In this document: piece after piece, positions 19,654-20,305 of the stretch
Position numbering within the stretch: position 1 is the stretch's first letter
Layout of the letters: every line of letters starts with the position of its first letter
Notes under the pieces: generated by a model
Databases searched by the model: none
What the model was told of the DNA's origin: nothing
Seen by the model: only the letters and a program-made list of their open reading frames with translations
Origin: Mizuhopecten yessoensis
Taxonomy: Eukaryota
Reading direction: 5' to 3'
Assembly (NCBI RefSeq): GCF_002113885.1
Contig: NW_018480051.1
Span: 306,961 to 370,960, forward strand
Length of the DNA stretch: 64,000 nucleotides
Program-made: the position numbers and the translations under genes

Positions 19654-20305
19654 ATGGTGCTGACAAGAAAAAAAAGAGGTAAAAAAAACTCTAAAAAAAC
19701 CTGCAGAGTGCACACAGACAGCAGAAAACAATAACGGAGAAACACATGAGATTGAGCAGTCAATAGGCACAAAGATAAGAGACAAGGAAGGGAATGACGT
19801 AGAGTTACAAGACACAGAGGGAACAGAAATCGAACAGATGGAGGTAGGACAGTTCCAGGTGGAGGACACAGTGGCAGTCTTGTACTTCCCTATCCAGCTG
19901 TTCCGATTACTCGAGATTTACGTAGACAAAGACCAAACACAGGCCGGTTCTTCTGGAGTTGCACCACTTCAAACCCCGGAAATAAGCCGTGCGCCGTCTG
20001 ATCGAGGTCCAGACAAAGAATGTCGGACGCGATCAACTCCACCAGCAGACCAGAATCAGTCAGAAGAGGAATCCGATTCCGTACCCACTGGTGCTCGGCG
20101 GTGCTTTAAGCGTTCAGACAAGGATCTGCTGCTCAGCCTGTGTAATGACCTAATCGAAGGGGACAGCCCTATCACACAAAAAGCGGTCCTGAGGCAAATA
20201 TAGGAGACACATCTCCAAAATGCATACAGCGGCAAACAGCTTTCAGACCGAATTAGAACTGCACGGAAAGCATTTGCCAAGGGAAAATTTACAAAAAAGA
20301 CTTAG
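19654..20305 (+). pseudogene. Acidic/disordered protein ending in a Myb/SANT-like (telobox-like) domain
   Basis: Acceptor at 19637-19638, ATG at 19654, one extra A in a homopolymer near 19670, in-frame TAG at 20201, then ETHLQNAYSGKQLSDRIRTARKAF to TAG at 20303; AATAAA at 21256. Confidence 0.5.

Follow-up and report, generated by a model that had tools for sequence, protein, structure and literature searches.

Does a peptide that can be read through a single stop codon, lying among TTAGGG-containing arrays in a 64,000-nt stretch of Mizuhopecten yessoensis DNA (the window, meaning here the whole stretch analysed), belong to a telomere-repeat-binding protein encoded by the locus itself? The original prediction had noted a peptide readable across one TAG at 20201, and the translation of 20096–20305 (+) matches it exactly, with the internal TAG at 20201–20203 and a terminal TAG at 20303–20305. 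Scored against a profile of 44 relatives from which the window's copy was left out, the peptide reaches 69.0 bits, compared with 11.6 bits for the best of 1,000 shuffles. When the window's own genome was searched with the domain, 22 candidates were scored and 15 of them matched; one of the 15 is the window's copy, and the other 14 show 30–61% identity. In particular, the half downstream of TAG 20201–20203, the conservation of which was checked in paralogues, is the best conserved portion of the domain. The peptide is a genuine domain, far above chance, and a Pfam search with it and with its halves gave no match.

At the paralogous loci, the domain closes a tyrosine-recombinase (YR) frame. Intact paralogues were sought and recovered, one of which is a 786-aa frame in C5399, corresponding to the uncharacterised Mizuhopecten yessoensis protein P0003. 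Specifically, P0003 is composed of two C2H2-like zinc fingers, a helical region, the YR (NAQRSG, HKTG, KIR, MTH and the catalytic Y), a linker, and, at residues 636–711, a helix-turn-helix (HTH) domain that is the same as the one under study, and the YR catalytic set (R, K, H/K-x-x-R, H/W, Y) is found in P0003 and its relatives. The second zinc-finger helix is conserved too, reading R-L/I-D-x-H in most copies. Against Pfam, P0003 gives a weak Phage_integrase match alone (E 0.001), with no DUF3504, DUF3435 or GCR1_C.

A full scan of 1.84 billion representatives (50% level) with a seven-sequence profile returned 51 proteins, and in 50 of them no more than 25 aa separate the domain from the C-terminus. 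YR sequence is present in 16 of the 51 proteins carrying the domain, 10 of which had built the YR profile and match by construction, their YR motifs being visible nonetheless; most of the remaining proteins are short fragments. Two copies of the domain occur in 9 of the 51, while P0005 retains the fingers and the HTH with no YR. Distant members with two tandem Myb-like domains were also observed (P0010, P0011, P0013, P0014, P0025, P0026, P0027, P0039, P0043 and P0052); the first of the tandem domains often begins with W, and nine cases were detected by profile. No Pfam match to TRFH was found in the 51 proteins, where zinc fingers and YR precede the domain instead, and none to DUF3504 or DUF3435 was found in P0002 (E ≤ 1) or in the 51 proteins (E ≤ 0.05).

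In five element regions, each frame of at least 150 aa is either the YR gene or an antisense shadow of it, apart from one unassigned frame in C76443, and no reverse transcriptase or DDE transposase was recognised. Viral contigs searched with P0027 and with alignment A5 contained no relative, and a metagenome search gave one locus (L089) out of 124 candidate stretches. Word-index protein searches (P0002 residues 480–786; alignment A4) recovered P0003 alone though relatives exist, and blanks from these searches are uninformative. A viral origin of the family was rejected on the grounds of a single YR gene and no other long frame. The peptide at 20096–20305 (+) is almost certainly the remnant of a YR C-terminus, predicted to be a Myb/homeodomain-like HTH domain with an N-terminal arm reading RR-x-F.

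To obtain a model of the fold, we used the domain of the intact paralogue in C3762, which is 42% identical to the window's, together with 44 sequences. The resulting model (pLDDT 89.7, pTM 0.76) contains helices at 12–21, 23–27, 34–41, 46–49 and 52–67 and agrees with the predicted Myb/HTH fold, being of the Myb/homeodomain type; a single-sequence fold of P0003 was unusable (pLDDT 34.7). In a structural comparison with 48,161 chains, in which every Z score is below 8 and may reflect merely a common helical arrangement, the top match of the C3762 domain model is ARR1 (Z 6.5, rmsd 2.2, 59 aligned), and other DNA-binding HTH matches include CRX (Z 6.0), LUX and MATalpha2 (5.9), TEBP-2 and TBF1 (5.2), and GT-1 (5.1). 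TRF1 is matched at Z 5.4 and 5.2 (1w0t: Z 5.2, rmsd 2.6, 52 aligned) and is outranked by homeodomains and GARP-Myb. Foldseek returned no match for the model at E ≤ 0.001, and domain profiles run against PDB sequences returned zero and three unrelated matches at E ≤ 10, with no TRF chain. Weak Pfam leads, all below family thresholds, are GeBP-like_DBD (E 0.0036) and Myb_DNA-bind_4 (E 0.019 and 0.046), Atlas leads are a Rap1-Myb cluster (0.78) and Myb_DNA-bind_3 (TM 0.59), and the domain fits no Pfam family tested. As modelled, the fold is a Myb/homeodomain-like HTH with no preference for TRFs.

The kinship with TRF proteins that had been proposed from helix 3 does not hold at the level of residues. 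According to an excerpt of PMC6175992, the hallmarks of the TRF domain are three Trp, VxxKDxxR and TRFH. The telobox consensus VxxKDxxR is found in helix 3 of 0/44 aligned members, and the window reads KQLSDRIR. The original prediction was right that the Trp is replaced, with V/I/L at that last position in 44/44, but the Lys before the Asp is gone as well, being S in the window and K in 0/44 relatives. At the first Trp position the family carries F/Y/L, and any Trp at all occurs in only 3/44 members. Judged by these residues, the domain is not a telobox.

Nevertheless, part of the DNA-reading surface of TRF1 may have a counterpart. In the portion of PMC5737604 available, the base interface of TRF1 comprises R380, V418, K421, D422 and R425, with specific hydrogen bonds from R380, D422 and R425. 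The aligned range (model 6–65, TRF1 379–430) would place R7, D57 and R60 on R380, D422 and R425, a mapping that rests on the end points of the range and assumes an ungapped helix 3. The R-x-x-F and D-x-x-R spacing is as in TRF1, and across the 44 members R/K is kept at 7 in 32, D/N at 57 in 41, and R/K at 60 in all 44; TRF1 K421 and V418 have no counterpart in the family. In the window, the putative recognition helix lies at about 20231–20278 (+), with D at 20246 and R at 20255. Helices with D-x-x-R are found in further Myb/SANT-like families, so the R/D/R match is a hint only.

The domain lies within a non-autonomous YR DNA transposon copy of 7,324 bp (17644–24967, +), which starts with TTAG after CCCTAA and ends with GGTTCTAA before CCC-type repeats. 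The TTAGGG arrays named in the original prediction are present, but they are built of composite units of TATGTTGCA/TGCAACATA plus 1–3 TTAGGG and are not plain arrays. The whole window contains 2 TTAGGGTTAGGG and 7 CCCTAACCCTAA, whereas the companion 9-mer is present 64 times, confined to 18148–24918. Specifically, one composite array of about 85-bp units, with TGCAACATA/TATGTTGCA and TAACCC in both orientations, occupies 21440–22215, and a second array copy occupies 23120–23730 (96% to 21521–21804 and 21880–22039). Of the 24 occurrences of GCAACATA within the element, 11 have a TAACCC after them at a distance of 11 nt, and this spacing suggests a two-part site.

We fetched flanks for 27 YR or domain loci, out of sets of 15 and 42 matches. 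The word TAACCCTA exceeds background within 5 kb (p < 0.001) at 12 of the 27, which are not independent because neighbours share flanks. By our own grouping, enrichment is seen at 8 of 9 nearly whole genes and at few fragments, and the 15 loci lacking it are mostly decayed fragments. The gene of P0006 is not enriched, with 0 TAACCCTA in 8,076 flanking bases and TAACCC clusters 6–7 kb off. The companion motif differs by subfamily, being TATGTTGCA in the window, C1928, C5536 and C4063, TAAGTTGCA in C3762, TTCGTTAC in C5399 and C76443, and TATGTTACA in C1177. Helix 3, by comparison, reads DR(V/I)RTAR in every subfamily where it is intact, and TAACCC is constant too. The metagenome YR of L089 (33% identical) has no domain and no TAACCC, with ATCC microsatellites beside the gene, in one case on a 3-kb contig.

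The constancy of helix 3 and of TAACCC while the companion motif varies modestly favours TTAGGG as the ligand. We therefore put forward, as a tentative proposal somewhat short of an even chance, that the HTH of intact copies binds TTAGGG specifically. It is a comparably serious prospect, also below even, that the locus is likewise a dead transposon copy but the HTH recognises the TGCAACATA family of companion motifs, or binds DNA without sequence preference; telomere-repeat targeting, if real, would then be the work of the zinc fingers or of the YR core. Consistent with this alternative, the companion motif with its 64 copies outnumbers TTAGGG in the element, the second zinc-finger helix is conserved as well, and the fold search shows no TRF preference. 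Furthermore, a GTT/AAC core is common to GGGTTA and to every companion-motif variant but TATGCTAA, so a constant helix 3 could read these motifs too. What speaks against it is that the companion motif varies and helix 3 does not, and that the R/D/R triad corresponds to the base readers of TRF1.

The element ends bear on whether telomere-type repeats are the target. Similarity to C2188 begins at 17629 (88–90%), and matches to C2188 and C5399 end at 24975–25001. The junctions read CCCTAA/TTAG (17644) and GGTTCTAA/CCC (24967), the same junction words recur in other copies, and we infer the exact crossover point from them. On the left, the element is preceded by a telomere-type repeat, TAACCCTAACCCTAA (17629–17643, +), whose last CTAA (17640–17643) recurs at 24964–24967; on the right, it is followed by a degenerate (CCCTAA)n tract (24968–25005, +). 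An 18-bp subterminal direct repeat, CTGTCAACATAGACGTCC, is present in exactly two copies in the window (17673–17690 and 24941–24958, both +), and words related to it occur at both ends of the C2188 copy. Alternatively, the ends can be read as 8-bp inverted repeats without duplication. If joined, the ends of the C2188 copy would form the palindrome GGTTCTAATTAGAACC (GGTTCTAA-TTAGAACC), which is the symmetry that a YR site should have. Immediately after the right end of the window's element, a 51-bp minisatellite was observed at 25007–25534, each unit of which contains GCAACATA and a word resembling the subterminal repeat.

Junctions with (CCCTAA)n are found in several copies. A genome-wide count gives 8 sites for the left word AACCCTAACCCTAATTAG versus 0 for its control, and a looser right-end word occurs 13 times versus 5 for controls, with several of its matches in unrelated repeats. 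Three of the eight AACCCTAACCCTAATTAG sites follow pure repeats running to a contig end (two of at most 44 bases, the third of about 350 bases), one follows the right end of a sister element, and one is the window's; the site in L094 leads into tRNA-like sequence and may be unrelated. Nested arrangements are seen in C5399, C3762 and C2188, where a few repeats separate the right end of one element from the left end of the next. At the contig ends of C351, C2188 and C47905, element-type left ends stand directly after (TAACCC)n that reaches the contig end, possibly at true chromosome ends. A 95% identical copy of the right part of the window's element was also seen at C5399:2073940–2084316, where it is split by a 7.7-kb insert and lies directly 3′ of the intact YR gene of a different subfamily.

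Together, the junctions indicate that the element quite probably targets telomere-type repeats. It is unlikely that the TAACCC flanks are instead terminal repeats belonging to the element, or relics left by subtelomeric copying, with the YR elements multiplying through segmental duplication or by accumulating in nests. Such an origin would suit the presence of TAACCC inside the elements, the short and degenerate flanks in the window, the absence of any observed empty site, and the few copies per subfamily. It is opposed by the TAATTAG start point shared by subfamilies with different internal sequence in repeats of differing origin: arrays of the long terminal type, short tracts embedded in other repeats, and sister-element ends.

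Targeting of telomere-type repeats would be a property of the family, and the window's gene copy itself looks dead from its sequence. A predicted 5′-UTR intron (GTAAGT ... TTACAG; 19130–19638, +) with a TATGTTGCA/TTAGGG array inside is followed by a segment (19654–19867, +) with an ATG, a basic N-terminus (MVLTRKKRGKK, resembling MPKRTRKGAKK of the C3762 copy) and an acidic linker; the C3762 copy shows the same order of array, acceptor and ATG, with a similar basic start. A piece of the acidic linker (19753–19854, 102 bp) also has an isolated 96% identical copy at C5184:28776–28877. The frame of ATG 19654 meets a stop after 26 codons and is out of frame with the HTH domain, and the putative frameshift appears to sit in or near the A-runs of 19654–19867. 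Only 20 codons of the YR catalytic domain remain (TVAVLYFPIQLFRLLEIYVD; 19868–19927, +; 60% identity to the C1928 copy), lying between two deletions relative to the C3762 copy, of about 1,170 nt before the remnant and 291 nt after it (about 1,460 nt in total), which have removed both zinc fingers and every catalytic residue. The alternative that had been offered from the start, an internally deleted YR gene, is thus borne out.

Four public sequencing runs were examined over 19705–20760, where X1 and X16 span the stretch, X6 covers the first part only and X5 gives no coverage. The premature TAG at 20201–20203 (+) is polymorphic, being retained in X1 and replaced by CAG in X16, which has a TAA at 19883–19885 instead. 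Seven of ten single-base differences in the frame alter or stop the protein, versus 77% expected if neutral, a count that omits the single difference of X6, whose contig runs off into unlike sequence. The different stop in X16 and this ratio fit neutral decay. Since a contig may join variants of different phase, a haplotype free of stops may exist. The nearest copy, C1928, is broken in a different manner. Read-through of the stop or a variant code was rejected, since the paralogues are open in the standard code and the stops differ in place between copies.

The frameshift, the stops and the neutral pattern of variation leave little room for the working, self-contained binder gene that had been suggested. 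It is very improbable that the locus encodes a mini-gene, domesticated or regulatory, for a protein that binds telomere repeats or the arrays on its own, with the stop read through or an assembly error. In favour of such a gene, the HTH is left intact by both deletions, the length of the second (291 nt) is divisible by three, TAG 20201 is polymorphic, and P0005 likewise combines fingers and HTH without YR. Against it, the ATG and the domain lie in different frames, both spanning contigs carry a stop (X1 at 20201, X16 at 19883) amid variation that fits neutrality, and C1928 is broken differently.

Elsewhere in the window, the same YR family is represented once more at 46500–50180 by a truncated member, with a TAACCC tract at 46495–46515, TATGCTAA and TTAGGG arrays at 47600–48100, and two zinc fingers (48537 and 48654); its YR part ends after NGERCG, and no HTH was found in it. 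Two long frames (27420–29399 and 29555–30859) with no Pfam match lie between 53-nt inverted arms at 26027–31679, and their motifs and Cys-rich tail are reminiscent of an Academ transposon. Decayed LINE-like endonuclease and reverse-transcriptase frames are present at 12397–15990 (−) and 55664–56913 (+), and an LTR-retrotransposon integrase-like remnant with a weak rve match (E 0.064) is present at 39696–41241 (−).

The window copy is best read as a defunct CryptonV-like DNA transposon with telomere repeats as its target. As a whole, we consider it likely that the peptide represents the C-terminal domain of a YR, interrupted by a stop, in an internally deleted 7.3-kb element, that the element is a Crypton-like transposon targeting (TTAGGG)n, and, with less assurance, that the predicted HTH reads TTAGGG in intact copies. 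An intact copy would make one protein, which would bind both element ends, excise the element as a circle, and integrate it by crossover in the CTAA common to the element and a (CCCTAA)n tract. Telomeres, interstitial tracts and the element's own repeats could all serve as targets, and integration into the latter would account for the nesting of copies. In such a complex, the HTH may hold the constant TTAGGG half of the site while the zinc fingers or the core-binding domain take the variable subfamily motif, and the internal units of companion motif and TAACCC may be extra sites that load or titrate the same protein; the intronic array could repress the gene, providing self-repression. The window copy keeps both ends and would be mobile only with help in trans. 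More tentative still is the broader proposal that a YR transposon family homes to telomere repeats through an independently recruited Myb-like domain with the Arg/Asp/Arg contacts of TRF1, stacking copies at chromosome ends and in interstitial repeats.

The interest lies in the family that the window copy exposes, the copy itself being a decayed relic. To our knowledge, the known telomere-targeting mobile elements are retrotransposons, and a recombinase-driven DNA element that used a TRF-like reader to insert into TTAGGG would reach that safe site by a second route. If true, such an element might compete with shelterin, would supply animal genomes with interstitial telomere repeats, and would be a candidate integrase for targeting repeats.

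TRAS/SART and MoTeR are non-LTR retrotransposons with reverse transcriptase and endonuclease, for which telomere repeats are a harmless landing site. The element described here would have in common with them the use of telomere repeats, but it is a DNA element in which the YR gene is the sole long frame. With TRF1 and TRF2, the family would share a C-terminal HTH with a basic N-terminal arm and modelled counterparts of R380, D422 and R425; unlike them, it is without VxxKDxxR, the Trp triad and TRFH and is fused to a recombinase, and the modelled domain has an extra short helix and longer spacing. Our literature search found no published telomere-repeat-targeting YR with a Myb-like tail, although Repbase may hold one, and the excerpts of PMC3537659, PMC13465315 and PMC10456876 contain nothing on this domain.

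According to an extract of PMC3212892, Cryptons encode a YR only, have 4–6-bp direct repeats at their ends, a proposed circular intermediate and non-autonomous derivatives; CryptonF has a C-terminal DNA-binding domain, GCR1_C, and CryptonA and CryptonI are without a C-terminal domain. The element resembles Cryptons as described there, having a YR without reverse transcriptase or DDE transposase and CTAA direct repeats at 17640–17643 and 24964–24967. It differs from CryptonA and Starship captains in that the P0003 family is without DUF3504 or DUF3435, and from CryptonF in that P0003 is without GCR1_C. The closest likeness in kind is to CryptonV, which an excerpt of PMC8869645 (citing Kapitonov and Jurka 2012) presents as animal YR transposons with specific insertion into simple repeats or microsatellites. 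By that account, both are YR-encoding DNA transposons of animals, with a single gene here, and the (CCCTAA)n junctions of several copies may reflect a similar insertion into simple repeats. Compared with CryptonV, known to us by description and not by sequence, the family has a putative telomere-repeat target, two zinc fingers, a predicted C-terminal HTH and internal composite arrays, and it may be CryptonV itself.
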